A program made the translations under genes and the position numbers. The notes under the pieces were generated by a model. That model made no database searches and was not told the DNA's origin. It worked only from the letters and a program-made list of their open reading frames with translations. This document shows positions 1 through 15,906 of a DNA stretch of 17,196 bases, piece by piece. Source of the DNA: a virus; the UHGV virus genome UHGV-0071544, one strand, 5' to 3'. Positions within the stretch are counted from its first letter, which is position 1. Each line of letters starts with the position of its first letter.

Positions 1-139
1 CAACAATATCTTTGTATGGTATGTAGCTGACACCTTCCAGACCATCGTTACCACTCGGTCCAGTGATTAACACAGATGCTATAGCAATAGCCCCGCCACT
101 TATCGCCGCTATTACGCTATTTCGTAGTGCCGGTGACAT
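1..139 (-). CDS. SAR-type endolysin (phage 21 R-like lysozyme), N-terminal 46 codons only; gene runs off the window start
   Basis: Minus-strand ATG at 139 overlapping the holin 3' end. Translation [46 protein letters not shown] is a Gly/Ala-rich signal-anchor-release segment, closely resembling the phage 21 R N-terminus as recalled. Below the ORF-track length cutoff because truncated. Confidence 0.65.
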
Positions 140-320
140 TGCCATTCAATCTGTCCTCGCGCTCTTTGCGCTTGTAGTACCAGTTGATGCCAAATGTGCC
201 GACAGTACAAAGAATACCAATGATGACAGCCCAGTCATTCAGGGAGAGAATGCCACCCATCGCAGTCAGTCCCCCGAAGCTGTAACTGAACCATTCTCTG
301 ATTTTGTCCATACGGTACAT
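117..320 (-). CDS. Holin, pinholin-like class II with dual-start motif
   Basis: 67 aa starting MYRMDKI (two Met separated by a basic residue). Two hydrophobic segments ([17 protein letters not shown] and [20 protein letters not shown]) and a charged C-terminus KRKEREDR. Sits immediately upstream of and overlapping the endolysin start. SD-like AAGGGG 7 nt upstream. Confidence 0.7.
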
Positions 321-326
321 GCTCTA

Positions 327-342
327 CCCCTTCATTGAGGGG
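327..342 (-). promoter_or_regulatory. Short hairpin (CCCCT-N6-AGGGG) overlapping the holin ribosome-binding site
   Basis: 5-bp inverted repeat whose 3' arm on the mRNA strand is the SD-like AGGGG just upstream of holin ATG 320. Confidence 0.3.
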
Positions 343-441
343 ATTTGCTCTATTTAATTAGGAATAAGGTCGATTACTGATAGAACAAATCCAGGCTACT
401 GTGTTTAGTAATCAGATTTGTTCGTGACCGATATGCACGGG

Positions 442-477
442 CAAAACGGCAGGATGTTGTTAGCGCGACCTCCTGCC
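442..477 (-). terminator. Candidate intrinsic terminator (tR'-like) between late promoter region and holin
   Basis: Minus strand reads GGCAGGA, a 16-nt loop, TCCTGCC, then GTTTTG; 7-bp GC-rich stem but only a short U-run, so weak. Confidence 0.3.
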
Positions 478-564
478 ACCCGCTTTCACGAAGGTCATGT
501 GTAGAAGTCCGCAGCGTAACTATCACTGATGAATTCAGGATAGCCAGTGGCTACGGCTCAGTTT

Positions 565-694
565 GGGTTGTGGCGGCCGGAATCGAACCGGCTTCCATCG
601 GTGCGCTGCCGATTGCAGTACGCGCGGCGGTCAGCTACATGACTAGTATTTTCACTGTCGCCTATCTGCTAGCTCGCCATTGAGCTTCACCACA
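565..694 (-). ncRNA. tRNA-like element (T-arm consensus plus acceptor-like and D-arm-like segments); too long for a canonical tRNA
   Basis: Minus strand contains GCCGG-TTCGATT-CCGGC (T-stem/loop consensus, plus-strand 579-589 ggaatcgaacc) followed by CGCCACA. About 120 nt upstream lies TGTGGTG (pairs with the putative 3' acceptor) then AGCTC-AATGGC-GAGCT (D-arm-like). There is no CCA directly after the acceptor and about 55 extra nt in the middle. Confidence 0.3.
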
Positions 695-859
695 ACGATA
701 AGAGCACTGCGCGGCACCTTTCACCAATTCCGCGAGGTCTGCGGGTTCAATGCTCTTACCTGTTGTGCAAACAAAAAAAGCCACCGTTGCAACTTAAGAG
801 TCACTAACGGCAGCTTATGCGAATAGTGTTGCTCATTTGCTCAATGATGTCAACACGTT

Positions 860-1348
860 CTATGCTACATGTTTAATTTTCTCTACACGTTTTCGGTTTT
901 TAAACGCACTATCCAGAACCGGATAAATCATAAACAACGAGGCATTGAGGATTTCGTCAACTTCCCGGCGACAGGTTGCGAGCGATGGTTTTTGAATGCG
1001 CCCGCCGCCCCGGCATAACATCTTGCGAGGTCTTGCGACGCGATGATAGTAAGATGCAATGGCGTGCTTGGAAGAGCCATGAGCGTAGTAGCTTAGGAGG
1101 ATGCCAAAGGCTTTCTTGTCAATGTACATGACGGAATCGACGACCTGAGAAATCAACATTCCATCATCATCATTACACATTGGCCTTGTCATAACTCTTC
1201 CCGGCTCTACGCTCTCCATGAACTTCGCTATTACGCTGCTCATGCGCTTTTCCAGACGACCTGAATAAACCCATGCGCCCCACAGTTCAAGCCAGCCATT
1301 CAGCCACTCATGCTGTTCTTTGGTGAGGTTTAGTTCTCTTATGCTCAT
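860..1348 (-). CDS. Putative late-gene antiterminator Q (non-lambda Q family, possibly Q21/Q82-type)
   Basis: 162 aa, last gene of the minus-strand nin operon (ATG overlaps ninH stop as ATGA), about 540 bp upstream of the holin. Position matches lambda Q; sequence is not lambda Q. TTGACA hexamer directly after its stop (plus 848-853). Confidence 0.55.
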   Translation of the reverse strand: MSIRELNLTKEQHEWLNGWLELWGAWVYSGRLEKRMSSVIAKFMESVEPGRVMTRPMCNDDDGMLISQVVDSVMYIDKKAFGILLSYYAHGSSKHAIASYYHRVARPRKMLCRGGGRIQKPSLATCRREVDEILNASLFMIYPVLDSAFKNRKRVEKIKHVA

Positions 1349-1533
1349 CGTCTTCCCCTCTTGCCCTGTTTGACCATCAGGACGCCGTTAACTATTACGT
1401 GACGTTCGCCTTTGCTGTCTCGGTTGTACTTGAGCACCGTTCCTCTTGCGCAGGAAAGCATCCTTGCCACTTCGGTCTGATTGCCTCGTGTCTGGATAAG
1501 AAGCTCTGGTATCGTTTGAATTGTGGCGTTCAT
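1345..1533 (-). CDS. ninH: NinH-like small DNA-binding protein
   Basis: 62 aa; TIPELL...GNQTEVARML.C.RGTV.KY closely resembles lambda NinH as recalled; start overlaps rusA stop. Confidence 0.75.
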   Translation of the reverse strand: MNATIQTIPELLIQTRGNQTEVARMLSCARGTVLKYNRDSKGERHVIVNGVLMVKQGKRGRR

Positions 1534-1892
1534 ACGCTCTCCAGTTCGGTGATTTTTATTCCAAGCCTTCCGCCTGGTACTTTCACACCACGAATTACGC
1601 GAATGTCATCGAATTGCTCGTCGTCTTCCGCAAATCCGGCGTGGATAAGGGAGTCGAGTAAACCTTTCAGGATGTTGTCGAGGTCGCGGCGGCGGGAGTC
1701 TGGAACGTCTGCGATGACTTTGATGCGGAGTCGTGATTTGGTGAAAATGTCTAACTTGAGTTGGCGGATTATTTGCTGAACTTCTTTTCGGTATTTCTGA
1801 CCTTTATCGCTGATGTAGTATTGGTTTCCCCGTCTTCGCCAGTAGGTATTCACCGACGGCGGGTATGGAAGCACAAACTGATATTCGTTCAT
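1530..1892 (-). CDS. rusA: RusA-family Holliday junction resolvase
   Basis: 120 aa; motifs LPYPPSVNTYWRR, RRRDLDNILKGLLDSL, GGRLGIKITEL match E. coli RusA as recalled. Confidence 0.9.
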   Translation of the reverse strand: MNEYQFVLPYPPSVNTYWRRRGNQYYISDKGQKYRKEVQQIIRQLKLDIFTKSRLRIKVIADVPDSRRRDLDNILKGLLDSLIHAGFAEDDEQFDDIRVIRGVKVPGGRLGIKITELESV

Positions 1893-2179
1893 GACTTAAT
1901 CTTCCCCTCCTTCAGCAGTATCGCCTGCGTCCTGATTACGCCTTCGAGGTGGCAAAGTCTGGCGTCTTTGTTGTCGAGGTTATGGGTGCGTCGGTCGATT
2001 TCATCGTGACACGCGCTACAAGCCCATGCGCCGATCAGGTCGTCAGGCTTCATTCCCGCTCCGCAAATTCCAGCCATCCGGTAATGTGCCAGAACTGTAG
2101 TTTCAGGGTTGCCATTGCATACGCCGTAAATACGTACCTGGCATTCTCTGCCGCGTGCTTCTTTGCGTAGGTTAGCCAT
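1889..2179 (-). CDS. YbcO-like DUF1364 protein (putative metal-dependent nuclease)
   Basis: 96 aa; RGRECQVRIYGVCNGNPETTVLAH...CSACHDEIDRRTH resembles DLP12 YbcO as recalled; Cys/His cluster; TAATG overlap with the upstream gene. Confidence 0.75.
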   Translation of the reverse strand: MANLRKEARGRECQVRIYGVCNGNPETTVLAHYRMAGICGAGMKPDDLIGAWACSACHDEIDRRTHNLDNKDARLCHLEGVIRTQAILLKEGKIKS

Positions 2180-2901
2180 TAAGCAGCCTCCCCTGTTACT
2201 TTCAGCATTCCGTTATCGAGCAGCTTTCTGGTCAGCCACTGTTGACCACGCCCGGTGATTTTTGTGGTGAACGATATCTGTATTCCGTGATTTGTGTTGA
2301 CCGCTGTTTCCTTCACTGCGAAATAGCCGCGATCCATATATTCCTGCATTGGCACATTGCGCCGGGAACCTGAAGCAATAAGGATTTTGTGACCGCGCAT
2401 CCACGCAAACAGTTTGTTTGGACCAATTCCAACAACCTTTGCAAAGTTTCCAATCAAAATTCCGCTGGCCTCGCCAACGCGATCGGCAAACTCAACTTTA
2501 GGTGCGGCAATTGCGAGCTGGTTTTCCAGTTGCATTTTCTGCTCAGCAAGATCAGCAGCAAGGCGCAACGCTTCTGGTAGCGTTTTGGGGATATTAACCG
2601 CAGTTTCTTCAAGCTCTCGCCAACGGTCAACAAGACGAGCGGTGAATTCCGGCGACAACTGGGCAACAACGACAATACTGTCTCGCTTACCTTGTTCGCC
2701 TTCGAAGACGTAATGCTCGTACTGAACATTGAACCCTAAGTTATTGATTCTTTCGGAAACCTCAATTTGAGGAAGCCGGATAACACCATTTTTAGCCAGC
2801 GTTTCGATGGTACGTTTCACATTGTCATGACGCTTACCAACCAACTCAGCGATTTCAATGCTTGTCATTTTGATGGCATTGCCATTTATTAACTCATTCA
2901 T
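2179..2901 (-). CDS. Rha-family regulatory protein with C-terminal KilA-C/ANT antirepressor-like domain (Roi-like)
   Basis: 240 aa; N-terminal MTSIEIAELVGKRHDNVKRTIE is typical of phage Rha domains; C-terminal half resembles antirepressor KilAC domains; located in the nin region like HK022/HK97 roi. Confidence 0.65.
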   Translation of the reverse strand: MNELINGNAIKMTSIEIAELVGKRHDNVKRTIETLAKNGVIRLPQIEVSERINNLGFNVQYEHYVFEGEQGKRDSIVVVAQLSPEFTARLVDRWRELEETAVNIPKTLPEALRLAADLAEQKMQLENQLAIAAPKVEFADRVGEASGILIGNFAKVVGIGPNKLFAWMRGHKILIASGSRRNVPMQEYMDRGYFAVKETAVNTNHGIQISFTTKITGRGQQWLTRKLLDNGMLKVTGEAA

Positions 2902-3064
2902 CGTCTTCTTCCTCGTACATTGAGCTATTCGGATCGCTCATCAGTTCTGCGCAGCAGTGCTCACACACATGAACTTCCAGCACATGCAGCTTCTGACCGC
3001 AGTTAGCACACGTTAAAGCTCGCTCGACGCTTTCTTGTTCGTAACTTCGATTTTGGTCAATCAC
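2894..3064 (-). CDS. ninF: NinF-like protein
   Basis: [39 protein letters not shown] matches lambda NinF as recalled. Start placed at GTG 3064 (GTGA overlap with ninE stop); the ORF-track ATG at 3106 would overlap ninE by 45 nt. Confidence 0.7.
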
Positions 3065-3243
3065 CTTGTTTTCCTCGCACGATGTCTTAGCCACCGGATA
3101 TCCCACAGGTGAGCCGTGTAGTTGAAGGTTTTTACGTCAGATTCTTTTGGGATTGGCTTGCGTTTATTTCTGGAGCGCTTCGTTGGAAGGTATTTGCAGT
3201 TTTCGCAGATTATGTCGGTGATACTTCGTCGCTGTCGCCTCAT
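3061..3243 (-). CDS. ninE: NinE-like protein
   Basis: Internal ATG at 3243 gives 60 aa [51 protein letters not shown]..., lambda NinE-like; ATGA overlap with the methyltransferase stop. The longer track ORF is an upstream extension. Confidence 0.8.
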
Positions 3244-3767
3244 GCCGCCCTCCTGACGCCCTGCCCGATCGCCATCAATGCCGCTTTTGATACGGTAGTA
3301 AACATCCGTCGAGGACTGATGAACGGTCGCCAAATCAGCAGCATGGAACCTTTGCTGTTTCCCTTCTTCTCCAGCCCTGTCGATGGTTCGATAAAATTAA
3401 TCCGTCCATCAGTGATAATGCGAACTTCGTCGACACTCTCCAGAGCCTTGCTGAACCATCCGACTGACATATCCTCTGGCACAAGCATAACTACCGTCTG
3501 TCGCTGTTGTATGCACTGCTCAGCGGCTTTTTCCACCCACGGCCTGATATTGCTGTACGGTGGGTTATTCCAGATTGCACCGTGGCTTACCCACTCAGAA
3601 TTGAGCGCGTCGTCGGCCTCAGTTAGCCAGTGAGCACACAGAGCATTTTTGTCGCTCGCTGCCGAATCCAGCCAGAATCCAAACTCAATATCCAGTGCAT
3701 CAAAAAGCCAAAGCGGCGTTTGCCAGCAGTCCTTGTCGTGTGCTGGCGTATTTGATTGGATAGTCAT
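3240..3767 (-). CDS. DNA N6-adenine methyltransferase (phage Dam-like orphan MTase)
   Basis: ATG 3767 (ATGA overlap with ninB stop) gives 175 aa; catalytic NPPY motif (IWNNPPYSN) and a DCWQTP-type motif; small phage MTase architecture, no adjacent restriction gene. Confidence 0.8.
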
Positions 3768-4204
3768 GCAGCCCGATCTCCCCATCTCGCTTTCCACTCC
3801 AGAGCCAGTCGCGCTTCGTCCGACCACTTAACGCCACGCTCTGTACCGAATGCCTGTATAAGCTCTAATAGCTCCGCAAATTCGCCTACACGCATCCTGC
3901 TGGTTGACTGGCCTATTACCACAAAGCCATTCCCGGCAAGGTTAGGAACAACGTCCTGCTGCTTTAATGCTGCGGTAAACACACACTTCCAGCTTTCTGC
4001 ATCCAGCCAGCGACCATGCCATTCAACCTGACGCGAAACGTCACCAAGGCAAGCCCAAAGCTTCCGATTTTGGTCTAAGCTGCGGTTGCGCTCCTGAATG
4101 GTTACTACGATTGGTTTTGTTGGGTCTGGAAGGATTTGCTGTACTGCGTGAATAGCGTTTTGCTGATGTACTGGAGATCGAATTTCAAAGGTTAGTTTTT
4201 TCAT
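3764..4204 (-). CDS. ninB: NinB (Orf-family recombination mediator)
   Basis: 146 aa; essentially full-length match to lambda NinB as recalled (MKKLTFEIRSP.HQQNAIHAVQQILPDPTKPIVVTIQERNRSLDQNRKLWACLGDV...). Confidence 0.9.
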   Translation of the reverse strand: MKKLTFEIRSPVHQQNAIHAVQQILPDPTKPIVVTIQERNRSLDQNRKLWACLGDVSRQVEWHGRWLDAESWKCVFTAALKQQDVVPNLAGNGFVVIGQSTSRMRVGEFAELLELIQAFGTERGVKWSDEARLALEWKARWGDRAA

Positions 4205-4397
4205 GACTTCCCTCTCTAACAGATTTCAGGTTATTCCACTCCGTTACCGCACTGCGATAATTCGCGGCCGCCACAGCGGCGTGGTTAGCGCAGTAGATTT
4301 GGCACCCGTTCTCCATGTCGAATATTGTCGGTGATTTTCCGCATTTACATTTTTTGGCACGCGGTGCGTCTGAACACATTCCGTTAACGGTGTCCAT
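4185..4397 (-). CDS. Small Cys-rich hypothetical protein (possible zinc-ribbon) at the ren position
   Basis: 70 aa with C8, C17, C19, C32, C36; SD GAGGGGGA 5 nt upstream of ATG 4397; lies between the tR2-like terminator and ninB. Confidence 0.5.
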   Translation of the reverse strand: MDTVNGMCSDAPRAKKCKCGKSPTIFDMENGCQIYCANHAAVAAANYRSAVTEWNNLKSVREGSHEKTNL

Positions 4398-4422
4398 CAG
4401 AATCCCCCTCGTTCTTAATCCA

Positions 4423-4451
4423 ATAAAAAAGGGCTACTGTGTAAATAGCCC
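4423..4451 (-). terminator. Intrinsic terminator after helicase gene (tR2-like)
   Basis: Minus strand GGGCTA-tttacacag-TAGCCC followed by TTTTTTATT; sits between the helicase stop (4479) and the nin genes. Confidence 0.55.
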
Positions 4452-4478
4452 CTGTTATTATCTCAGTGATGTAGATGG

Positions 4479-5855
4479 TCATACGTCAGCCCCTTGTGCA
4501 TATCGTCTGCCACGTGCAGCGGGTGCATTTGATGTTGTGCAAATCTGTCTGGCTTCATCCTGGTCACATGCAACAAAGTGTCCGTTGCAGAACCGCTGGT
4601 AAACCGTACCAAGCGAGCCAAAACGGTTTTTCGTCACAATGATTTCAGCAAATGGTGCGGCGCTACTGTTCTCGTCATATACAGCTTCCCGATAGAGCAT
4701 GATGATTGAGTCTGCGTCCTGTTCAATGCTTCCTGAATCACGCAAATCTGCGTTTGTCGGGCGTTTGTTTGGTCGCTTCTCAACATCGCGTGAAAGCTGG
4801 CTTAGTGAGACAACTGGCGTTTTCAGGTCTTTCGCCATCGCCTTCAGGCTTCCGGAGATGTGAGCAATTGCGAGGTCGTTGCGGTCTGCTTTCGGCTTCT
4901 CAATCAGACCAAGATAATCCGCCATGATGAGTGACAGGTTTGGATTTTCCTGTTTGTGCCGTTCTGCGATTGAGCGAATTTCTTCGACCGATAACCGCGA
5001 GGCATCGACTACCCATACATCCAAATCTGCAAGCTGACTCATGCCGTTAGCAACACGCGCCCAGCCTTCGTCATCCATCGATGCAGGATTTCGCAGCACG
5101 CTAACCGACATCCTCCCGGCGTTGGCAATGCTTCGCTCTGCAATCTGCAATGCGCTCATTTCCATCGAGAAAATCAACACTCCGCGCCGGACGTCAGAAC
5201 CAGGAATAACGCGGCTTGCAACGCCTTCGGCAATCTTCAGCGCCAGTTCGGTTTTCCCCATACCCGGACGAGCAGCGATAATCACCAGGTCTTCCGCGTT
5301 CATCCCTCCGGTGATGGCGTCAAGTTCTTCGATTCCGGTTTTCAGGGTATCTGACTCTTCTCCGTTCCTCAGACGCTTGTCAAGCGTGTCAGTGTAGTCA
5401 GTGATGATTTCCCCTAAGCGTACCGGTTTAACCTCGTCACGGGGCTTTCTGATGGCTGAGAGACGCTTTACAAGCTCGTCCATCGCCTGACTCGATGTAT
5501 CGATGGTTCCGCTCTGAATTGGTTCACGCATTTCATCCATGATTTCCAGCACCAGACGGCGGTGATAGTTATCCGCGACCATTCCGGCATATCCCTTCAG
5601 GTTTGCGGCACTCGGGCAGTTTTTGCTGGTCATCAGGATTGACGTGAAATGCTCCTCTCCGCACGCCTCGGCAACCATCAGCGCATCGATTAGGTTTCTG
5701 TTTCTCGCCTGCTTGCGGATAACCTCGAAGGCTTTCCGGTAGAGCGGAATTGAAAACGCTTCCGGCTCCAGCGTTGCCAGAACGTCGCTGGCGGTTGGAG
5801 TTAATCCACCAATCAGCAGGCCACCGATAACGCTCGCTTCGATATCCTGTCTCAT
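4479..5855 (-). CDS. DnaB-type replicative DNA helicase
   Basis: 458 aa; Walker [10 protein letters not shown], DnaB-family N-terminal helical domain and C-terminal RecA-like domain ([22 protein letters not shown]); start overlaps O stop. Confidence 0.9.
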
Positions 5856-6673
5856 GCAATCCCCCTGTCTGCAAACTTCCCTTCCCGTACTCCCGTTAAC
5901 GAATCTTCCCTCAGCAGGTAATCAAAATCTGCCGTCCAGCCAGTGTCGTTGTCTCCGAAGTAAAACGGCTTGGCCTGATGTACAAACGCCCTGACATACG
6001 CTCTGAAACCGTCCACGTTTGGCGTTTTCAGTTGCGGGATGATTTTCTTCAGGCGGCGTTTGCGTTTCTCGTTGACCGCAACAGCGTGTGGCAGTCTGTC
6101 ACCGACTTCGGTGTTGTAGGCGTTCAGGAAGGATTCATAGTCGATTCGTTCTGCCTTGCGACGTTCAGGTTTAACCTGCCCATCGCCGCCCCCGTTAGGG
6201 GGTAAGGGGGTATTTGTATTTATTGTCTTTTGTATATTGTCTTTTGTGTTTAGCTGACTTGGCTTATACCCATTAGCCGACTTGGCTAATGTTTTATTAG
6301 CTGTTTTAGCTAATGTTAAGCTGTCCTGGCTAATCCACTGAGAAACCACCTTGTTCACTCCGATTTTCACGCCATCAGCAATGAGGAATTTACGCTCGAT
6401 AAGCTGGCGCTTGGCAGCGCAAACATGAGTGTGATGAATACCTGTCATGGCTGCTATCTGCGTGTTTGTGAGTCGATCCATCGGCTTATTGAATCCGTAT
6501 GTCTTGCGCATGATAGCGAGCATCACCTTCAACTGCCGGACGGTTAAATCAGCCATCAGCAGACTGTCGGTAATCTCGTTAGCAACGCGCATGAAACCAT
6601 CTTCGGTATCTGCCACGCGATGCTCCACGACCTCCAGTTGAGGCCTGTAATCAGCTAACTTAACGACGCCCAT
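5852..6673 (-). CDS. Replication initiator O-like protein (iteron-binding)
   Basis: 273 aa; [37 protein letters not shown] resembles the lambda O N-terminal domain; the iteron array lies inside the coding sequence as in lambda; C-terminal part differs. Confidence 0.85.
6210..6335. repeat. Phage replication origin: AT-rich segment plus four about 19-bp palindromic iterons
   Basis: AT-rich run 6210-6249 with direct repeat attgtcttttgt x2. Iterons ttagctgacttggcttata (6250-6268), ttagccgacttggctaatg (6273-6291), ttagctgttttagctaatg (6297-6315), ttaagctgtcctggctaat (6316-6334), each an inverted repeat TTAGC..GCTAA. Confidence 0.75.
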
Positions 6674-6821
6674 GTTTCACTCCTGCTTTGGCTAGTCTGT
6701 AAACACCAACAAGGCGCTCTGCGAACGCCCTGTTATTTGCTGCGGCTACCACTAATCCCTCAGGTGAATCAGGGTGTCGAATCTCTTCTTTTTCCTGGTA
6801 TTTCTTACGACGTTTTGTCAT
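6660..6821 (-). CDS. Small basic hypothetical ORF between cII and O (53 aa)
   Basis: ATG 6821 preceded by AGGAG 5 nt upstream; translation [53 protein letters not shown]; 3' end overlaps the O start by about 12 nt. Lambda has no gene here as I recall. Below the ORF-track cutoff. Confidence 0.4.
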   Translation of the reverse strand: MTKRRKKYQEKEEIRHPDSPEGLVVAAANNRAFAERLVGVYRLAKAGVKHGRR

Positions 6822-6855
6822 AATTACTCCTGTGGATTGATCCAGTCTTTCTACA

Positions 6856-7134
6856 TCAGGCCTCGAAGAATTCGCCGTTCTTCGGGGCTTTTTCTTTTGT
6901 CAGCATTCTGGCTACTTGCTTAGCCAGTTCCGCCAACTCCTCGTCTTCAACACCCCATTCAAGAACAGCCAGAAGCATTCCCATTTTGGGGATGAAGCTG
7001 TCTTTCCATCGCGAAATTTGCGATTCATTAATCCCTAACGCGTCGGCAACCTTTCGCTGACCACGTACAGCAATTCGATTCAGGATGTTGCTTGTAATTG
7101 CATTCGCTTTCTTGCGAGTACTTGTAAGTTGCAT
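6856..7134 (-). CDS. cII: CII-like transcriptional activator
   Basis: ATG 7134 with AAGGAAA SD gives 92 aa; core SQISRWK..FIPKMGMLLAVLEWGV as in lambda CII but termini diverge; track ORF start 7194 is an upstream extension. Confidence 0.85.
   Translation of the reverse strand: MQLTSTRKKANAITSNILNRIAVRGQRKVADALGINESQISRWKDSFIPKMGMLLAVLEWGVEDEELAELAKQVARMLTKEKAPKNGEFFEA
7088..7130 (+). promoter_or_regulatory. PRE-like promoter with CII site TTGC-N6-TTGC
   Basis: ttgcttgtaattgc at 7088-7101 on the plus strand, inside the 5' end of cII and oriented toward cro/cI, the arrangement of lambda PRE. Confidence 0.5.
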
Positions 7135-7213
7135 ATGTAAGTATTTCCTTAGATAACAATTGATTGAATGTATGCAAATAAATGCATACACCATAGGTGT
7201 GGTTTAATTTGAT

Positions 7214-7245
7214 GCCCTTTTTCAGGGCTGGAATGTGTAAGAGCG
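7214..7245 (-). promoter_or_regulatory. nutR (boxA CGCTCTTA, boxB GCCCTGAAAAAGGGC)
   Basis: Minus-strand boxB is the complement of plus 7214-7228 and boxA the complement of 7238-7245, between cro and cII. Confidence 0.7.
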
Positions 7246-7252
7246 GGGTTAT

Positions 7253-7462
<210 letters not shown>

Positions 7463-7479
7463 TTAGTACATGCAACCAT

Positions 7480-7543
7480 TATCACCGCCAGAGGTAAAAT
7501 AGTCAACACGCACGGTGTTAGATATTTATCCCTTGCGGTGATA
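7480..7543. promoter_or_regulatory. Right operator oR3-oR2-oR1 with divergent pR and pRM
   Basis: tatcaccgccagaggta (7480-7496), caacacgcacggtgtta (7504-7520), tatcccttgcggtgata (7527-7543), the lambda oR half-site pattern; cI ATG at 7554 (leaderless pRM transcript). Confidence 0.9.
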
Positions 7544-7550
7544 GATTTAA

Positions 7551-8267
<717 letters not shown>

Positions 8268-8379
8268 TCGGCAAGGTGTTCTGGTCGGCGCATAGCTGAT
8301 AACAATTGAGCAAGAATCTTCATCGAATTAGGGGAATTTTCACTCCCCTCAGAACATAACATAGTAAATGGATTGAATT

Positions 8380-9219
8380 ATGAAGAATGGTTTTTATGCG
8401 ACTTACCGCAGCAAAAATAAAGGGAAAGATAAGCGCTCAATAAACCTGTCTGTTTTCCTTAATTCTCTGCTGGCTGATAATCATCACCTGCAGGTTGGCT
8501 CCAATTATTTGTATATTCATAAAATCGATGGAAAAACTTTTCTCTTTACCAAAACAAATGACAAGAGTCTGGTTCAGAAGATAAATCGCTCTAAAGCTTC
8601 AGTTGAAGATATTAAGAACAGCCTCGCAGATGACGAATCATTGGGATTCCCATCTTTTTTGTTTGTTGAAGGCGACACCATTGGTTTTGCCAGAACTGTT
8701 TTCGGGCCGACCACATCCGATCTGACAGATTTTTTAATCGGGAAAGGAATGTCATTAAGCAGTGGAGAGCGCGTTCAGATAGAGCCACTGATGAGGGGAA
8801 CCACCAAAGACGATGTTATGCATATGCATTTCATCGGCCGAACAACGGTGAAGGTAGAAGCCAAGCTACCTGTATTTGGCGATATATTAAAGGTCTTAGG
8901 GGCAACAGATATTGAAGGGGAGCTTTTTGACTCATTGGATATAGTCATTAAGCCAAAATTTAAAAGGGATATAAAAAAGGTTGCCAAGGATATTATTTTT
9001 AACCCGTCACCTCAATTTTCAGACATTAGCCTGCGGGCAAAAGATGAGGCCGGAGATATTTTAACAGAACATTATCTATCAGAAAAAGGCCATCTCTCAG
9101 CGCCTCTGAACAAGGTCACCAATGCTGAGATAGCTGAAGAGATGGCATATTGCTACGCAAGAATGAAAAGTGATATACTGGAATGTTTTAAAAGGCAGGT
9201 GGGCAAAGTTAAGGATTAA
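8380..9219 (+). CDS. rexA: RexA (exclusion system sensor/activator)
   Basis: 279 aa, same length and sequence as lambda RexA as recalled; immediately downstream of cI in the pRM operon. Confidence 0.9.
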   Translation: MKNGFYATYRSKNKGKDKRSINLSVFLNSLLADNHHLQVGSNYLYIHKIDGKTFLFTKTNDKSLVQKINRSKASVEDIKNSLADDESLGFPSFLFVEGDTIGFARTVFGPTTSDLTDFLIGKGMSLSSGERVQIEPLMRGTTKDDVMHMHFIGRTTVKVEAKLPVFGDILKVLGATDIEGELFDSLDIVIKPKFKRDIKKVAKDIIFNPSPQFSDISLRAKDEAGDILTEHYLSEKGHLSAPLNKVTNAEIAEEMAYCYARMKSDILECFKRQVGKVKD

Positions 9220-9234
9220 TTATCAGGAGTAATT

Positions 9235-9669
9235 ATGCGGAACAGAATCATGCCTGGTGTTTACATAGTAATAATTCCTTACGTTATCGTAAGCATTTGC
9301 TATCTCCTTTTCCGCCACTACATTCCTGGTGTTTCTTTTTCAGCTCATAGAGATGGTCTTGGGGCGACATTGTCATCATATGCAGGAACCATGATTGCAA
9401 TCCTGATTGCTGCCTTGACGTTTCTAATCGGAAGCAGAACGCGCCGACTGGCCAAGATTAGAGAGTATGGGTATATGACATCGGTAGTTATTGTCTATGC
9501 CCTTAGTTTTGTTGAGCTTGGAGCTTTGTTTTTCTGCGGGTTATTGCTTCTTTCCAGCATAAGCGGCTACATGATACCCACTATCGCCATCGGCATTGCC
9601 TCTGCATCGTTCATTCATATATGCATCCTTGTTTTCCAACTATATAATTTGACCAGAGAACAAGAATAA
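9235..9669 (+). CDS. rexB: RexB (membrane ion-channel component of Rex exclusion)
   Basis: 144 aa with four hydrophobic segments; lambda RexB as recalled. Confidence 0.9.
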   Translation: MRNRIMPGVYIVIIPYVIVSICYLLFRHYIPGVSFSAHRDGLGATLSSYAGTMIAILIAALTFLIGSRTRRLAKIREYGYMTSVVIVYALSFVELGALFFCGLLLLSSISGYMIPTIAIGIASASFIHICILVFQLYNLTREQE

Positions 9670-9697
9670 CCCGGCCTCAGCGCCGGGTTTTCTTTGC
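9669..9697 (+). terminator. Intrinsic terminator ending the cI-rexAB operon (timm-like)
   Basis: ACCCGGC-ctcagc-GCCGGGT followed by TTTCTTTG directly after the rexB stop. Confidence 0.7.
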
Positions 9698-9845
9698 CTC
9701 ACGATCGCCCCCAAAACACATAACCAATTGTATTTATTGAAAAATAAATAGATACAACTCACTAAACATAGCAATTCAGATCTCTCACCTACCAAACAAT
9801 GCCCCCCCCCTGCAAAAAATAAATTCATATAAAAAACATACAGAT

Positions 9846-9908
9846 AACCATCTGCGGTGATAAATTATCTCTGGCGGTGTTGACATAAATACCACTGGCG
9901 GTGATACT
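9846..9908 (+). promoter_or_regulatory. Left operator oL3-oL2-oL1 and pL promoter
   Basis: aaccatctgcggtgata (9846-9862), tatctctggcggtgttg (9866-9882), taccactggcggtgata (9890-9906); -35 TTGACA 9880-9885, -10 GATACT 9903-9908. Confidence 0.9.
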
Positions 9909-9947
9909 GAGCACATCAGCAGGACGCACTGACCACCATGAAGGTGA

Positions 9948-9978
9948 CGCTCTTAAAAATTAAGCCCTGAAGAAGGGC
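9948..9978 (+). promoter_or_regulatory. nutL (boxA CGCTCTTA, boxB GCCCTGAAGAAGGGC)
   Basis: boxA 9948-9955, boxB hairpin 9964-9978, in the pL leader upstream of N. Confidence 0.85.
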
Positions 9979-10088
9979 AGCATTCAAAGCAGAAGGCTTT
10001 GAGTAGCGCGAAATGCAGCTGCAAGACAGCAACCGTGGAGATAAGCATCACGGCGCGTTACTCAAAGCTAACTGACAGGAGAATCCAG

Positions 10089-10415
10089 ATGGATGCACAA
10101 GCACGCCGCCGCGAACGTCGCGCAGAGAAACAGGCTCAATGGAAAGCAGCAAATCCCCTGTTGGTTGGGGTAAGCGCAAAACCAGTTAACCGCCCTATTC
10201 TCTCGCTGAATCGCAAACCGAAATCACGAGTAGAAAGCGCACTGAATCCAATAGACCTTACAGTGCTGGCTGAATACCACGAACAGATTGAAAGCAACCT
10301 GCAACGTATTGAGCGCAAGAATCAGCGCACATGGTACAGCAAGCCACGCAGTGAAATGGGTGTGACTTGTGTTGGTCGCCAGAAAATGAAATTAGGCAGC
10401 AAACCACTTATTTGA
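10089..10415 (+). CDS. N: N antiterminator
   Basis: ATG 10089 with SD AGGAGA gives 107 aa; arginine-rich motif MDAQARRRERRAEKQAQWKAAN; lambda-N-like except the last about 25 residues, which differ from lambda as I recall. Track ORF start 9999 is a leader extension. Confidence 0.9.
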   Translation: MDAQARRRERRAEKQAQWKAANPLLVGVSAKPVNRPILSLNRKPKSRVESALNPIDLTVLAEYHEQIESNLQRIERKNQRTWYSKPRSEMGVTCVGRQKMKLGSKPLI

Positions 10416-10423
10416 GGTGATAT

Positions 10424-10675
10424 ATGGAATTTCATGAAAGTGCGATTTATGATTTTCGCGCTAACGCAAATTCAGTAAAACCACAGCCAATTGCAGTTCT
10501 TTTTAAAACAATGGGTGCGTGGGCTGTTTTATGCTTCGCCGCTGATGACACTGACGCAAGAATGGCAATAGGCCAAGAGATGGAGATGGACCCGACAAAC
10601 GATGAATTCATAATTTATGGCGCTCCATCTAATTACTTACTTGATACCTGCAACATTTACAACAAGGCTGCCTGA
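10424..10675 (+). CDS. Hypothetical acidic protein (83 aa), first gene of the cassette at the sieB/ral position
   Basis: Strong RBS GAGGTGATAT-ATG 9 nt after the N stop; no recognisable motif; followed by a hairpin plus T-run. Confidence 0.55.
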   Translation: MEFHESAIYDFRANANSVKPQPIAVLFKTMGAWAVLCFAADDTDARMAIGQEMEMDPTNDEFIIYGAPSNYLLDTCNIYNKAA

Positions 10676-10733
10676 TGGTGGCCTTTATTTTTGGCCGTAA
10701 ATAATTTCATGCTTATTACAATCAAGGTGATAT

Positions 10734-11183
10734 ATGGAAGAACAAGCAAACAAGATTCTCGTAGAACTACTGCAAAAAGCCAGTAATGGAATAGACGCGG
10801 CTGTTTCATTTAGCCAGGCACAGATTCCTGATGTTGTTCATCAGTTGCTGCTATGGAATATGGTTGACAGTCTGATTAAAACATTAATGGCCATTCTAAC
10901 AATCCCACTGGTTTTCTGGTTTATGAAGAAGCAGTGCCAAAGAGTTGAGACAGGTAAAATCGGTGATGAAGGATATTCATGGGAGAAAGGAAATCCCAAA
11001 TACAGGCCGACAATGGTTTGGGATAGCAAAGGTGATATTAATCTTCTTATCATGCCATTGGTTGGAGTTTTGACTCTGTGGGGGATTTTTATTATTGGTG
11101 TAGTAACCAATATGACTTGGTTAAAAATTTGGCTGGCCCCAAAGCTTTACCTTATCGAATATGCAGCATCATTGGTTAAGTAA
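10734..11183 (+). CDS. Hypothetical two-pass membrane protein (149 aa), candidate superinfection-exclusion or abortive-infection factor
   Basis: Two hydrophobic helices (LIKTLMAILTIPLVFWFM and INLLIMPLVGVLTLWGIFIIGVV); same 15-nt RBS/start module as the upstream gene; followed by a strong intrinsic terminator; occupies the lambda sieB-equivalent position. Confidence 0.65.
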   Translation: MEEQANKILVELLQKASNGIDAAVSFSQAQIPDVVHQLLLWNMVDSLIKTLMAILTIPLVFWFMKKQCQRVETGKIGDEGYSWEKGNPKYRPTMVWDSKGDINLLIMPLVGVLTLWGIFIIGVVTNMTWLKIWLAPKLYLIEYAASLVK

Positions 11184-11188
11184 TTTCA

Positions 11189-11213
11189 GGCCGCATGGTC
11201 GGCCTTTATTTTT
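11189..11213 (+). terminator. Intrinsic terminator after the membrane-protein gene
   Basis: GGCCG-catggt-CGGCC followed by TTTATTTTT. Confidence 0.65.
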
Positions 11214-11332
11214 GGCATAAACAACAGAATAAACACTGCACTGTGTATTCATTCCAACGAGTGAATACACGGAGCAATGTCGCTCGTAACTAAACAGGAG
11301 CCGACTTGTTCTGATTATTGGAAATCTTCTTT

Positions 11333-11359
11333 GCCCTCCAATGTGAGGGCGATTTTTTA
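11333..11359 (+). terminator. Intrinsic terminator upstream of ea10-like gene (tL-type)
   Basis: GCCCTC-caatgt-GAGGGC followed by GATTTTTTAT, 20 nt before the ea10 RBS. Confidence 0.6.
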
Positions 11360-11378
11360 TCTATGAGGAAATGAATAG

Positions 11379-11747
11379 ATGTCAAACATCAAAAAATACA
11401 TCATTGATTACGACTGGAAAGCATCAATAGAAATTGAAATCGACCATGACGTAATGACAGAGGAAAAACTTCACCAGATTAATAATTTCTGGTCAGACTC
11501 TGAATACCGACTCAATAAACACGGCGCTGTATTAAATGCTGTATTAATCATGCTGGCGCAACATGCTCTGCTTATAGCAATTTCGAAAGACTTAAATGCA
11601 TATGGTGTTGTTTGTGAGTTCGACTGGGATGATGGAAATGGTCAGGAAGGATGGCCTCCAATGGATGGTAGTGAAGGAATAAGAATTACCGATATCGATA
11701 CATCAGGAATATTTGATTCAGATGATATGACTATCAAAGCCGCCTGA
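11379..11747 (+). CDS. Ea10-like protein (lambda early-left protein)
   Basis: 122 aa, same length as lambda Ea10 and in the equivalent position between the N-proximal genes and cIII; SD GAGGA upstream. Identity to lambda Ea10 not verifiable here. Confidence 0.6.
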   Translation: MSNIKKYIIDYDWKASIEIEIDHDVMTEEKLHQINNFWSDSEYRLNKHGAVLNAVLIMLAQHALLIAISKDLNAYGVVCEFDWDDGNGQEGWPPMDGSEGIRITDIDTSGIFDSDDMTIKAA

Positions 11748-11822
11748 GCGCGGCTTTACCGCATACCAATAATGCTTCACGAGAGGCATTTTCGTTATGC
11801 AATCAAATATAAGGAGTTACCC

Positions 11823-11957
11823 ATGATGCACTTTCAGCTCGCGGGTAGCGGCGTCATGTCCGCTTTCTACCCGCACGAATCTGAATTATCACGCCGAGTT
11901 AAACAATTAATCAGAGCAGCAAAGAAACAACTGGAGGCGTTATGCGCAATGAAATAG
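11823..11957 (+). CDS. CIII-like protein (FtsH/HflB protease inhibitor family), non-lambda allele
   Basis: ATG 11823 after SD AAGGAG; 44 aa MMHFQLAGSGVMSAFYPHESELSRRVKQLIRAAKKQLEALCAMK; amphipathic ESELSRR..QL..A.K motif like the CIII/C3 family but not lambda CIII. Confidence 0.55.
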   Translation: MMHFQLAGSGVMSAFYPHESELSRRVKQLIRAAKKQLEALCAMK

Positions 11958-12094
11958 CCATTAATCACCAGATGCTTCGTGCTGCACAGAACAAAGCAGT
12001 AATAGCCAGATTTATTGGTGATTCAAAAATGTGGCTTGAAGCAAATAAAGCGATGAAATCAGCTATCAACCATCCGTGGTATCGCAGGAAATGA
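11942..12094 (+). CDS. Kil-like small protein (FtsZ-inhibitor family)
   Basis: 50 aa MRNEIAINHQMLRAAQNKAVIARFIGDSKMWLEANKAMKSAINHPWYRRK; motif IA.FIGD.KM shared with lambda Kil as recalled; overlaps the cIII-like 3' end by 16 nt as kil/cIII do in lambda. Below the ORF-track cutoff. Confidence 0.5.
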   Translation: MRNEIAINHQMLRAAQNKAVIARFIGDSKMWLEANKAMKSAINHPWYRRK

Positions 12095-12249
12095 GTTTTA
12101 CAGATAACTGGTCAGACGAAGAATTCATTCGTCAGATGAAAGAATTAATCGGTAACGAAGGAGATATTCATGTCACTTGCAACCACAGTGAAGGAGAGCA
12201 AGTTACAGAGACGCATGTACACGCAGAAAGCTCTCTGGTATCGCCATAA
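12091..12249 (+). CDS. Small hypothetical ORF (52 aa), position of P22 arf
   Basis: ATGA overlap with the kil-like stop; MSFTDNWSDEEFIRQMKELIGNEGDIHVTCNHSEGEQVTETHVHAESSLVSP; lies between kil and erf as arf does in P22-type operons. Below the ORF-track cutoff. Confidence 0.4.
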   Translation: MSFTDNWSDEEFIRQMKELIGNEGDIHVTCNHSEGEQVTETHVHAESSLVSP

Positions 12250-12350
12250 TGGCGACCGCGAAGGAATGCAGGTATGCCTTAATTTGTCCCGAGTCGAAGT
12301 ATTAAATCAGCGTTATTTCCTTGGGCCATGTCCATTCTGAGAACAAACAT

Positions 12351-12956
12351 ATGAGCAAAGAATTTTATGCAAGACTGGCAGCTATTCAGGAGAATCTGAA
12401 CGCGCCAAAGAATCAGTACAACTCATTCGGTAAATATAAATACAGAAGCTGCGAAGACATTCTTGAAGGCGTTAAGCCGTTACTGAATGGTCTGTTTTTA
12501 TCAATCAGCGATGAAGTTGTGTTGATTGGTGATCGGTATTACGTGAAAGCCACGGCAACTATCACCGATGGCGAAAACAGTCATACGGCAACCGCACTAG
12601 CACGAGAGGAAGAAAGCAAGAAAGGAATGGATTCTGCACAAGTTACTGGAGCTACAAGCTCTTATGCACGCAAGTATTGCCTCAATGGTTTGTTCGGCAT
12701 TGATGATGCGAAAGATGCAGATACAGACGAGCATAAACATCAGCAGAACGCAGCAGCAAAGCAATCAAAACCATCACCTACACCTGAACAGGTTCTAAAA
12801 GCATTCACTGACGCAGCATTGCAGAAAAACACCGTGGAAGAGCTTAAACAGGCGTTCGCCAAAGCGTGGAAGATGCTCGAAGGCACACCGGAGCAGCAAA
12901 AAGCGCAGGACGTTTACAACATCAGACGAGACGAATTAGAAGGGGCGGCCGCTTAA
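12351..12956 (+). CDS. erf: Erf-family single-strand annealing recombinase
   Basis: ATG 12351 gives 201 aa beginning MSKEFYARLAAIQENLNAPKNQYNSFGKYKYRSCEDILEGVKPLL, very similar to P22 Erf as recalled. The track ORF start at 12321 is a TTG upstream extension. Confidence 0.85.
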   Translation: MSKEFYARLAAIQENLNAPKNQYNSFGKYKYRSCEDILEGVKPLLNGLFLSISDEVVLIGDRYYVKATATITDGENSHTATALAREEESKKGMDSAQVTGATSSYARKYCLNGLFGIDDAKDADTDEHKHQQNAAAKQSKPSPTPEQVLKAFTDAALQKNTVEELKQAFAKAWKMLEGTPEQQKAQDVYNIRRDELEGAAA

Positions 12957-13339
12957 TGGCACATTCGATTACTGTAAGACTAAACAAGCCCGCAAGAGAG
13001 TTTCAGGCCGGGGAAAATATCGGATTCAACATCCGTGCTGGAGTTCAGTATTACGATCGCCAGACAGAAAAGAAAGAATGGACAAACTACAGCGCCGTTG
13101 TATTTGCCAAGCCGGGAGCGCAAGCGGATTACTACCGTAGTGTTCTTGTTGAAGGTGGCATTGTTGAAATTACCGGAGAAAACATCAGGGTTGATATTTA
13201 TCAGGGGCAAAATGGTCAATCAATCACTCTTGAATTACTGAATGCAAAGATTGGATTTGCAGCTTCAGGAAATGGCCCGCAGCAGCAAAGTAGTAACCAG
13301 CAGAACACTCCTGTATACGACGATTCCATCCCATTCTGA
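12956..13339 (+). CDS. Short SSB-like single-stranded DNA-binding protein
   Basis: ATG 12956 (TAATG overlap with erf stop) gives 127 aa; OB-fold-like N-terminal region, Gln/Gly-rich linker and acidic C-terminal tail ...VYDDSIPF resembling the SSB DDDIPF client-binding tip. Confidence 0.7.
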   Translation: MAHSITVRLNKPAREFQAGENIGFNIRAGVQYYDRQTEKKEWTNYSAVVFAKPGAQADYYRSVLVEGGIVEITGENIRVDIYQGQNGQSITLELLNAKIGFAASGNGPQQQSSNQQNTPVYDDSIPF

Positions 13340-13362
13340 TTTAGAAAAATAAGGATTTAATT

Positions 13363-13656
13363 ATGCCAGCGCCTTTGTATGGTGCGGATGACCCGCGCCG
13401 CTGTTCCGGCAATTCCGTATCGGAGGTGCTGGATAAATTCAGAAAAAACTACGATCGAATAATGTCTCTACCGCAGGAAACGAAAGAGGAAAAGGAATTT
13501 CGCCACTGTATATGGCTTGCAGAGAAAGAAGAACGCGAGCGAATTTACCAGACATCAATCCGACCATTCCGCAAAGCCACATATACCCACTTCCCTGAAA
13601 TTGACCCGCGCCTGCGTAATTACCGCTCACGCTATGGCGCTATCAGTAATGACTGA
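13363..13656 (+). CDS. Hypothetical 97-aa protein; possibly Abc2-type anti-RecBCD factor by position
   Basis: Good RBS AAGGA; follows the erf/ssb genes, where P22-type phages carry the abc genes; no motif I can verify. Confidence 0.45.
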
Positions 13657-13666
13657 GGAATTTACA

Positions 13667-13834
13667 ATGAGAGGACTTGCATACAATCCCGGCATTCTTC
13701 CGGCAGAAATGATTATTCGCCAACGCGTAAAGCCAATGCCATCGAGAGAGGAATTGCTTAAGAGAAATTCTTTTCCGTCAGTAAATCAAAACAAATATCT
13801 GAATGCGATGTGGCGCAAAGGAGGCAACCAGTGA
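13667..13834 (+). CDS. Small hypothetical ORF (55 aa)
   Basis: ATG 13667 with SD GAGGA 9 nt upstream; [55 protein letters not shown]; the longer track ORF 13517.. overlaps the preceding gene. Confidence 0.4.
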
Positions 13835-14055
13835 GCGGAAAAAGAATGACTAACAGAGAGCTTGTCGATGCCGCGATTAAGCTTGCTGGTGATTTTTATT
13901 CAATGATGGGGTACACGCATCGCCCAGGCTTCAAATATTGGGAGTCTCCTCACCCGCAAGAGCAACTGGTATTTCAAATGGCCTGCCGTGCTTTTGAGGT
14001 TATTCGCGGTTCTGATGTGATGGACGCCGTTGCCGACTTGGAGGATGAAGAGTGA
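13831..14055 (+). CDS. Hypothetical protein (74 aa from GTG 13831, or 69 aa from ATG 13846)
   Basis: SD AAAGGAGG 7 nt upstream of GTG 13831, GTGA overlap with the upstream stop; acidic C-terminus DLEDEE. Confidence 0.5.
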
Positions 14056-14462
14056 ACAAGATTGACTATCAGGCACTGCGTGAAGCGGCAGAGAAAGCCG
14101 GTGAAGATAAGTGGCAGGCTAAAAAAATAAATGGTGATTTTTTCGTTATTCGTCACGGTAGTTATACAAGACAGCATGGCTACACATTGTATCAACCCAT
14201 TGCGGAGATTGATTGTAAGCCAGTCCGGGATTTTGTTGCCAAGGCTAATCCGGCTACCGTGCTGGAATTACTGGATGAACTGGAAGCAGCAAAAAAGCGC
14301 ATTGCAGAACTGGAAGCGCGGGAAATACTGCTCCCGGAACGTAGCAGCATGCTTCATCGAACAGATTTTCACGATGATTACCAAACGGTAATGGCATACA
14401 AAGTTTCTGAAGTCATCGCTGCAATCCGCGCCGCAGGCATTCGCATCAAAGGAGGTGAGTAA
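14052..14462 (+). CDS. Hypothetical coiled-coil protein (136 aa), Ead/Ea22-region type
   Basis: GTG start after SD GGAGGA, overlapping the upstream stop; heptad-like segment LELLDELEAAKKRIAELEAREILL. Confidence 0.55.
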   Translation: MNKIDYQALREAAEKAGEDKWQAKKINGDFFVIRHGSYTRQHGYTLYQPIAEIDCKPVRDFVAKANPATVLELLDELEAAKKRIAELEAREILLPERSSMLHRTDFHDDYQTVMAYKVSEVIAAIRAAGIRIKGGE

Positions 14463-14638
14463 TGCGTGTGGCATGTATCGGCTTGTTACCGTACCCGACT
14501 CGTTTTTGGGCTTCTGCGCTAATTGCAAAGCCGTATGTCCTGATGGCTGACAACATCATCCCGGCACCAAAGCGCCGCCATACCGGTATTGCAGCGGCAC
14601 GACGAGCAGCAAAGAGACGCAGGAGAGCAAAGCGATGA
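14462..14638 (+). CDS. Small ORF (58 aa) with Arg-rich C-terminus
   Basis: ATG 14462 after SD AGGAGGTGAG, TAATG overlap upstream and ATGA overlap downstream; MRVACIGLLPYPTRFWASALIAKPYVLMADNIIPAPKRRHTGIAAARRAAKRRRRAKR. Below the ORF-track cutoff. Confidence 0.35.
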   Translation: MRVACIGLLPYPTRFWASALIAKPYVLMADNIIPAPKRRHTGIAAARRAAKRRRRAKR

Positions 14639-14823
14639 AAAACCGTAAAGCAAAGATTCTGTTAGTTCGTAGAAACGCTCCTGGCGTCTGGCAGTGGGTG
14701 AGACTCAGCAACCGACGGATGGGGTTGATGAAATATTACGGGATGATGGATTGTGGTTTTTGCAAAAAGCCCAGCGCGGCGCAAAACCGCTGGAAAAACA
14801 ACTTGCGCACTAAAGGAGAGTGA
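14635..14823 (+). CDS. Hypothetical small protein (62 aa)
   Basis: Translationally coupled to neighbours; Cys pair CGFC; no recognisable family. Confidence 0.4.
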   Translation: MKNRKAKILLVRRNAPGVWQWVRLSNRRMGLMKYYGMMDCGFCKKPSAAQNRWKNNLRTKGE

Positions 14824-14824
14824 T

Positions 14825-15373
14825 ATGACCACTATAACCGATAAGAAACAGTATCCAGGCGAGCAATATCTTAATGAGCTGATCACCAACATAGAGTTTG
14901 CTGCAAGGGCACCAGTTGAAGTCGTGAGAGCAATGGCAGCAGAGCTACAGAAGCGGCGCGAAGCTGATAGTGCCGAACCTGCAAGTAATCATGAAGAGTT
15001 GCCGCTTGATTATCTCCAAGGTCAAAAAGATGGTCTTGAATGGGCTGCGCAGCTTGCAGAAGCAAATCACCCACAAACTGGCGACTGGCTTTACGATGAC
15101 CCGCTGGAGCTGGCTAAAGCTATCAGAAAAGGTCCTGACATGCCCGAATTCGATGGACCAACTCCGGTAACTCCGGATGGTTGGATAAGCTGTAGTGAGC
15201 GAATGCCCGCTCAAGATGATTGGATTTTAATTTATTCAAAGCACGGCGAGTATATGGCAGGACAGGTACAAGAGGAATACGTGGAGTTGAGCGACGGCAC
15301 TTTATCGTGGTTAGGGAACGCCTTGTTCTGGATGCCTCTACCAGAACCGCCGCAGGAGGTTAACCGTGGCTAA
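14825..15373 (+). CDS. Ea22-like protein (182 aa)
   Basis: ATG 14825 after SD AAAGGAGAG; same length and relative position as lambda ea22; C-terminal ...LFWMPLPEPP motif typical of a lambdoid early-protein family. Confidence 0.65.
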   Translation: MTTITDKKQYPGEQYLNELITNIEFAARAPVEVVRAMAAELQKRREADSAEPASNHEELPLDYLQGQKDGLEWAAQLAEANHPQTGDWLYDDPLELAKAIRKGPDMPEFDGPTPVTPDGWISCSERMPAQDDWILIYSKHGEYMAGQVQEEYVELSDGTLSWLGNALFWMPLPEPPQEVNRG

Positions 15374-15650
15374 CCTTCAACTGGCAGTTAACGGTGAATA
15401 TTTCGACCAGATGAAGTCAGGCGAGAAAACGGAAGAGTATCGCCTGTGTAATGACTACTGGAATAAGCGAATTATGTTCCGGGAGTATGACCGCCTGATT
15501 ATCACAAAGGGATATCCGAAGCGCGACGATTCCAGCCGCAGAATTGATGTTCCGTATGACGGATATGAAATCAAGACAATCACACATCCGCACTTCGGCG
15601 ATAAACCGGTAAAGGTATACGCGATAAAGGTGAATATCAGCAATGAATAA
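15366..15650 (+). CDS. Ea8.5-like small protein
   Basis: GTG start after SD AGGAGG; 94 aa, size and position equivalent to lambda ea8.5; GEKTEEYR-type motif. Confidence 0.55.
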   Translation: MANLQLAVNGEYFDQMKSGEKTEEYRLCNDYWNKRIMFREYDRLIITKGYPKRDDSSRRIDVPYDGYEIKTITHPHFGDKPVKVYAIKVNISNE

Positions 15651-15722
15651 CAATCCTCGCACTCGCGGGGATTTCTTTTATCTGAACTCGCTACGGCGGG
15701 TTTTGTTTTATGGAGATGATAA

Positions 15723-15890: not shown

Positions 15891-15906
15891 TGGCGGTTTT
15901 TTCTTG
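15881..15906 (+). terminator. Intrinsic terminator just upstream of pI and xis
   Basis: AACCGCC-tgat-GGCGGTT followed by TTTTCTTG. Confidence 0.6.

Follow-up and report, generated by a model that had tools for sequence, protein, structure and literature searches.

An intact dam-type orphan N6-adenine DNA methyltransferase gene between ninB and ninE in a lambda-like phage

A very close counterpart of the gene analysed here is dam of the Stx2 phage VT2-Sakai. Its product, M.EcoVT2Dam, is given as an orphan methyltransferase targeting 5'-GATC-3' in PMC6602927, which cites Radlinska & Bujnicki 2001. ATGA junctions, in which a stop codon and the next start codon overlap, are a recognised general feature of the lambdoid nin regions (PMC8022706), and the gene for M.EcoVT2Dam lies between a ninB homologue and ninE with precisely such overlaps at its ends. 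HK97 carries an equivalent gene, the product of which is gp62 (NP_037744, "DNA methyltransferase"). More distant members of the same Pfam family include phage T1 Dam (M.EcoT1Dam), which likewise methylates GATC, and M.Btr190III, which is 35% identical to T1 Dam and methylates GATC with substantial off-target activity (PMC4996451).

We analysed a 17,196-nucleotide stretch of the virus genome UHGV-0071544 (the window), which corresponds to the early region, in reverse orientation, of a lambda-like phage. The minus strand reads, in order of position, Q (860-1348), NinH, RusA, YbcO, Roi/antirepressor, NinF, NinE, the methyltransferase, and NinB, and past NinB a 70-aa ORF, a DnaB-like helicase, an O-like initiator, CII, and Cro. 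The plus strand encodes CI, RexA, RexB, N, Erf, an SSB-like protein, Ea22-like genes, and an integrase. The nin and replication region is collinear with that of HK97, and the ninF-ninE-dam-ninB block is 96-98% identical in DNA to HK97 and to its equivalents HK544, HK140, mEp043, mEp506, SfI, 434, and Sf6. In contrast, the immunity region of the window is of the lambda type (cI, rexA, rexB, and N), whereas HK97 has HK97-type immunity. The window is a mosaic in which lambda-type immunity (7554-10415; RexA, E 1e-97; RexB, E 8.5e-92) is joined to HK97-type replication and nin genes (860-6673), with an Erf-type recombination module as a further part, and neither among phage records nor among complete E. 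coli genomes does any entry cover at least 80% of it. The Cys-rich 70-aa ORF (4185-4397, minus strand), the equivalent of HK97 Gp60, overlaps the start of ninB by 20 nt and matches phrog_6308, a family of unknown function. A likeness of this ORF to Lar-type restriction-alleviation proteins found no support, with no Pfam match even at E ≤ 10.

The methyltransferase gene fills positions 3240-3767 exactly, as a single CDS with its stop codon included. It lies on the minus strand, which an initial annotation of this DNA had left unstated. The gene, its neighbours, and the junctions between them are as follows.

3240-3767, minus strand: dam-type orphan N6-adenine DNA methyltransferase CDS, 175 aa plus stop (ORF/translation, PF05869, TIGR01712, phrog_111)
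3764-3767, minus strand: ATGA overlap of the ninB TGA (3766-3764) and the methyltransferase ATG (3767-3765), from the sequence
3240-3243, minus strand: ATGA overlap of the methyltransferase TGA (3242-3240) and the ninE ATG (3243-3241), from the sequence
3764-4204, minus strand: ninB, orf-family recombination mediator, upstream neighbour (PF05772, E 7e-54)
3061-3243, minus strand: ninE, downstream neighbour (PF05322, E 8e-44)

In a mechanical ORF list, the dam frame runs on to a GTG at 3827. Considering that this extension overlaps ninB and that the family profile begins at residue 4 of the ATG-initiated protein, we take the ATG at 3767-3765 as the start. A Shine-Dalgarno-like GGGGAG is present 10 nt upstream of this ATG, and a similar AGGAGG, located within the methyltransferase coding sequence, precedes the ninE ATG by 5 nt. 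The initial annotation had described the gene as flanked by ninB and ninE within the nin operon and as translationally coupled there. The identity of the flanking genes is borne out by their PF05772 and PF05322 matches, and the gene shares an ATGA with its neighbour on either side. Judging by these overlaps, translation of dam is probably coupled to that of ninB.

Several further observations concern these junctions. The 8-mer GATCGGGC (minus strand), which has a Dam site inside, occurs at both 3263-3270 and 3771-3778, i.e. 19 nt before the ninE ATG and 3 nt before the dam ATG, near both ATGA junctions. This repeat was noticed post hoc and is roughly what chance would give in the region, although its presence at both boundaries is less expected; the pair could be a module-junction remnant. 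Among the protein database matches there are fusions of Dam (PF05869) and NinE (PF05322) of 233-235 aa, one cluster of which has 41 members; a frameshift at the ATGA overlap, or read-through there, is their presumed origin. Other chimeras among the matches, in which Dam is joined to CII, RusA, NinB, or Q domains, resemble products of recombination or of faulty gene calling.

As assessed by profile searches, the protein matches PF05869 ("DNA N-6-adenine-methyltransferase (Dam)") over profile positions 1-167 of 169, with an E-value of 5.8e-65 and a score of 218.5 bits (cut-off 28.1). Its match to the NCBIfam equivalog TIGR01712 ("phage N-6-adenine-methyltransferase") covers positions 2-165 of 165, with an E-value of 1.6e-79 and a score of 265.2 bits (cut-off 97.05), and there is a further match to phrog_111. 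Since the PF05869 and TIGR01712 matches are full-length, the dam ORF is far beyond chance, and its sequence identifies the protein as a member of the phage HP1/T1/VT2 "Dam" family (PF05869/TIGR01712). Taken broadly, this is a very large family: in a library of 1.84 billion representatives, the PF05869-type proteins amount to 8770 clusters at 50% identity (E ≤ 0.001). Three conserved elements can be located in the gene.

3714-3725, minus strand: N-terminal W-x-T-P motif of the family, codons of W15-Q16-T17-P18 (alignments)
3654-3671, minus strand: motif-I-like region, codons of L33-D34-S35-A36-A37-S38 (D34 invariant in both alignments)
3555-3566, minus strand: catalytic motif IV NPPY, codons of N68-P69-P70-Y71 (sequence and alignments)

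We used two alignments to assess the conservation of these elements, one with 32 homologues at 59-98% identity and the other with 25 sequences down to 30% identity, phage T1 Dam included. In the former, N68, P69, P70, Y71, T17, P18, and D34 are invariant, among other residues. In the latter, the invariant residues are T17, P18, D34, N68, P70, R122, F125, and S141, while P69 is found in at least 90% of the sequences and position 71 is Tyr or Phe. W15 is near-invariant, at 90% or more across the family, and such conservation suggests that the W-x-T-P motif has a functional role. The region around D34 is the presumed AdoMet site, as we take the likeness of L33-S38 to the LEPACAHG motif of M.TaqI to be meaningful. 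The initial annotation had described a compact N6-adenine methyltransferase with an NPPY motif, to be checked by a Pfam search and by looking for loss of the catalytic motifs on alignment. The 175-aa protein with its N68-P69-P70-Y71 and its PF05869 and TIGR01712 matches agrees with that description, and the motifs are kept at both levels of divergence.

When compared with the VT2-Sakai dam product (BAA94133; L0094 in 933W), the protein is identical at 174 of 175 residues, and the genes at 520 of 528 nucleotides. The sole residue change, Q4K, falls at a variable N-terminal position. The two genes reside in different phages, an HK97/lambda-type mosaic in the case of the window and an Stx2 phage in the case of M.EcoVT2Dam. 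With a threshold of 95% DNA identity, dam occurs in 29% of the complete E. coli genomes (1566 of 5426), a single genome holding as many as five copies. A further 423 phage records have it, among them HK97, HK544, HK140, mEp043, SfI, 434, Sf6, and many Stx phages. At the other end of the family, T1 Dam is about 30-33% identical to the window protein, and both it and M.Btr190III share the W-x-TP, D-x-AA, and NPPY motifs. This pattern of relatedness makes the adenine of GATC the most likely target of the window enzyme. We put the probability that the protein is an active GATC-type orphan N6-adenine DNA methyltransferase at roughly 80%.

The methyltransferase is an orphan, with no cognate restriction enzyme adjacent to it or in its operon, in agreement with what the initial annotation had claimed. 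No restriction endonuclease was found among the larger ORFs of the 17.2-kb window, each of which was assigned either to a family of other function or to none; this absence applies to the window, and the late region of the phage lies outside it. Similarly, there is no restriction endonuclease beside the homologues in the VT2-Sakai, HK97, Pectobacterium, Edwardsiella, Yersinia, and Klebsiella-phage loci, where the adjoining genes belong to the nin set or serve replication, recombination, or integration. The operon does encode two nucleases, YbcO and RusA, and dam is found without YbcO in VT2-Sakai, Pectobacterium, Edwardsiella, and Yersinia. In a PADLOC analysis, the best match of the protein was oMTase ("orphan methyltransferase"), and the neighbouring genes had no match. 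Homologues at 58-79% identity sit in varied early-region contexts, none with a restriction enzyme. The Pectobacterium locus reads DUF1367, Dam, NinF, NinG, and Q, in Edwardsiella Dam is followed by RusA, the Yersinia homologue ends an early operon and adjoins host genes, and in Klebsiella phage RAH1 the homologue is near the integrase.

A sequence search identified no relative in the PDB, the best E-values (0.24 and 0.72) being to unrelated proteins. An AlphaFold model was generated from the 32-sequence alignment, with a mean pLDDT of 77.8 and a pTM of 0.79. The low-confidence parts are residues 1-14 and 34-47; pLDDT drops below 50 at residues 34-40, in the region of the presumed AdoMet site. 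The predicted fold is a minimal Rossmann class I methyltransferase core, i.e. one small domain without a separate target-recognition domain. The closest structural matches of the model are NPPY-type N6-adenine methyltransferases, e.g. PCIF1 and M.TaqI. The score is 6.7 for E. coli Dam and 5.7 for T4 Dam. Foldseek gave the same structural picture, more weakly. As modelled, the protein would be a pared-down catalytic core of the gamma-type amino-methyltransferases.

What the phage might gain from this enzyme depends in part on when it is made. By its position, dam belongs to the delayed-early pR operon (cro-cII-O-P-nin-Q) and lies downstream of a tR2-like terminator.

4429-4453, minus strand: terminator-like hairpin with a 10-bp stem, followed by the T-run TTTTTATT (consensus scan only)

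The hairpin sits between the stop of the helicase gene (4479) and the nin genes, which is the position of tR2 in lambda; it comes from a scan in which the number of terminator-like sites is not above that in shuffles. Going by its position, it probably makes nin and dam expression depend on N antitermination, and dam should therefore be expressed in the lytic cycle once N antitermination has occurred, and be kept off while CI represses the operon. In lambda and P22, virion DNA is under-methylated at Dam sites, because replication outruns host Dam (PMC8022706; PMC3299994), and it follows that a phage-borne GATC methylase would complete the methylation of progeny genomes. In the scenario we propose, the phage enzyme would supplement limiting host Dam, so that fast-replicating phage DNA has all its GATC sites methylated by the time it is packaged. 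This could shield the progeny DNA from methylation-sensitive restriction enzymes cutting at GATC, and might also guard it against MutH nicking at unmethylated GATC. This specific benefit, topping up host Dam and shielding progeny DNA, is put forward tentatively, and we would rate its chances at somewhat below even.

Several considerations temper this scenario. The initial annotation had suggested an anti-restriction or epigenetic role, and either may apply to the window gene. However, as an enterobacterial host already has a GATC Dam, "anti-restriction" could here mean only completing a methylation pattern and not adding one, and for the same reason the selective benefit is not obvious. Nor are GATC-specific restriction systems known to be common among Dam+ enterobacteria. 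Extra Dam activity can even be a liability for a phage, by analogy with Retron-Sen2, which is triggered to abortive infection through msDNA methylation when host Dam or phage P1 Dam (neither of the PF05869 family) is overproduced (bioRxiv 10.1101/2020.06.22.160242).

GATC is also depleted in the window. Over positions 1-17196 there are 27 sites, a depletion of about 2.7-fold relative to 200 shuffles that preserve dinucleotides (73.4 ± 8.1); every shuffle had more than 27. Avoidance of GATC is a known phenomenon in enterobacterial phages, and it persists here although the phage carries its own GATC methylase. A depletion of ~2.7-fold would be unexpected if the phage Dam removed the cost of GATC sites in full.

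The reading of this locus as an active GATC methylase gene of lytic growth has to be weighed against others. That the coding assignment is wrong, the real gene being an antisense ORF on the plus strand or the methyltransferase a decayed pseudogene, is barely conceivable. An antisense ORF of 174 codons does run over ninE and dam (3109-3633, plus strand), and it has a full-length match to phrog_37455 (unknown function) with an E-value of 1.6e-118. Yet the frame opposite diverged dam homologues contains three, four, and seven stops in Pectobacterium, Yersinia, and the Klebsiella phage, respectively, with the dam frame intact in each, and the best Pfam match of the antisense ORF (E 0.023) is not significant and falls under the family cut-off. 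We therefore rejected it as a shadow ORF that is not kept open in diverged homologues; phrog_37455 was probably built from mis-called ORFs of this kind. Decay of the methyltransferase itself is contradicted by the end-to-end matches to curated profiles and by the retention of all family-invariant residues. A less improbable suggestion, although still a very unlikely one in our estimate, is that the substrate is not, or not only, duplex GATC, so that the enzyme would have relaxed specificity or accept RNA or single-stranded DNA as a substrate, perhaps in concert with another protein. It lacks a target-recognition domain, PCIF1 is among its structural neighbours, and M.Btr190III, a member of the family, shows substantial off-target methylation (PMC4996451). 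In addition, an unrelated Stx-phage "GATC DNA methyltransferase", M.EcoPA8orf6770P, prefers 16S rRNA when bound to a partner (PMC10810198). That enzyme is of the MT-A70 type, has a DPPW motif, and is encoded near int, downstream of its winged-helix partner PNB-2, with which it is co-transcribed (PMC10810198). It belongs to another family and another genome position and serves as a precedent only. Identity with it was rejected, as the window protein has NPPY, the gene upstream is ninB (PF05772), and the locus is the nin region rather than int. Against a substrate other than GATC, a protein differing by one residue is reported to methylate GATC. Slightly less probable again is the idea that the enzyme serves a substrate that host Dam handles poorly, be it single-stranded, replicating, or recombining phage DNA near NinB, relaxed non-GATC sites, or RNA; if this were true, the coupling of ninB and dam would point to recombination and methylation being functionally connected.

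Among these alternatives, the one that concerns timing rather than substrate is that dam is an epigenetic regulator of the lysogen, in which low levels of the prophage-encoded enzyme would alter GATC methylation at protected or regulatory sites and thereby tune induction or host genes. For a related situation, the authors of a study on Phi24B propose that host Dam is supplemented through a putative Dam gene of the phage, which is expressed in cultures of lysogens (PMC3342100) and which may or may not belong to the family of the window protein. The residence of the gene in 29% of complete E. coli genomes, at up to five copies in each, would also suit a role in the prophage state. Host Dam is reportedly needed for lysogeny of the Stx phage 933W to be stable, which points in the same direction. 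Against this, dam is deep in the CI-repressed pR operon past the terminator-like hairpin and should be silent in a stable lysogen, host Dam already methylates chromosomal GATC, and no promoter-like site is found directly upstream of the gene, the sole minus-strand match in 2800-4700 being inside ninE. On balance, we consider a regulatory role in lysogens unlikely, and favour synthesis of an active GATC methylase during lytic growth.

Taken together, these findings show that the window dam is an intact and ordinary copy of an already known, characterised, and very common gene (M.EcoVT2Dam/HK97 gp62). As a discovery it adds little, for the gene is annotated in hundreds of phage records and more than a thousand E. 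coli genome records, and the protein one residue away has a REBASE name and a reported GATC specificity. The questions it raises concern the whole family. One is how a methyltransferase without a recognition domain reads GATC, and another is what a phage of a Dam+ host gains from a second GATC methylase. The answer to the latter matters for how virion DNA is methylated, for the way in which MutH and methylation-sensitive restriction are evaded, and for the triggering of methylation-sensing defences like Retron-Sen2.

How the window protein compares with other adenine methyltransferases can be summarised by size, motifs, and domains. Within its own family, T1 Dam is larger (237 aa), with an N-terminal extension of ~45 residues and an insertion before the G-R-x-x-F motif. 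The gamma-type enzymes with NPP[YF], namely M.TaqI, Type I HsdM, and PCIF1, are two to three times larger than the window protein and have a separate recognition domain or subunit, at identities of 10-19%. The non-specific adenine methyltransferases Hia5, Hin1523, and Nma1821 are Dam-related alpha-class proteins of about 280 aa with FxGxG and DPPY (PMC3299994), and membership in this group was rejected for a protein of 175 aa with NPPY and a different Pfam family. With the canonical Dam enzymes of E. coli, T4, and P1 (alpha-class, PF02086), the window protein has in common the reported product G-m6A-TC, the cofactor S-adenosylmethionine, and an orphan lifestyle. In contrast, a PF02086 match, DPPY, FxGxG, and an inserted recognition domain, which characterise canonical alpha-class Dam, are all absent from it. 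It is a protein that performs the job of canonical Dam, yet stands outside the canonical Dam family.
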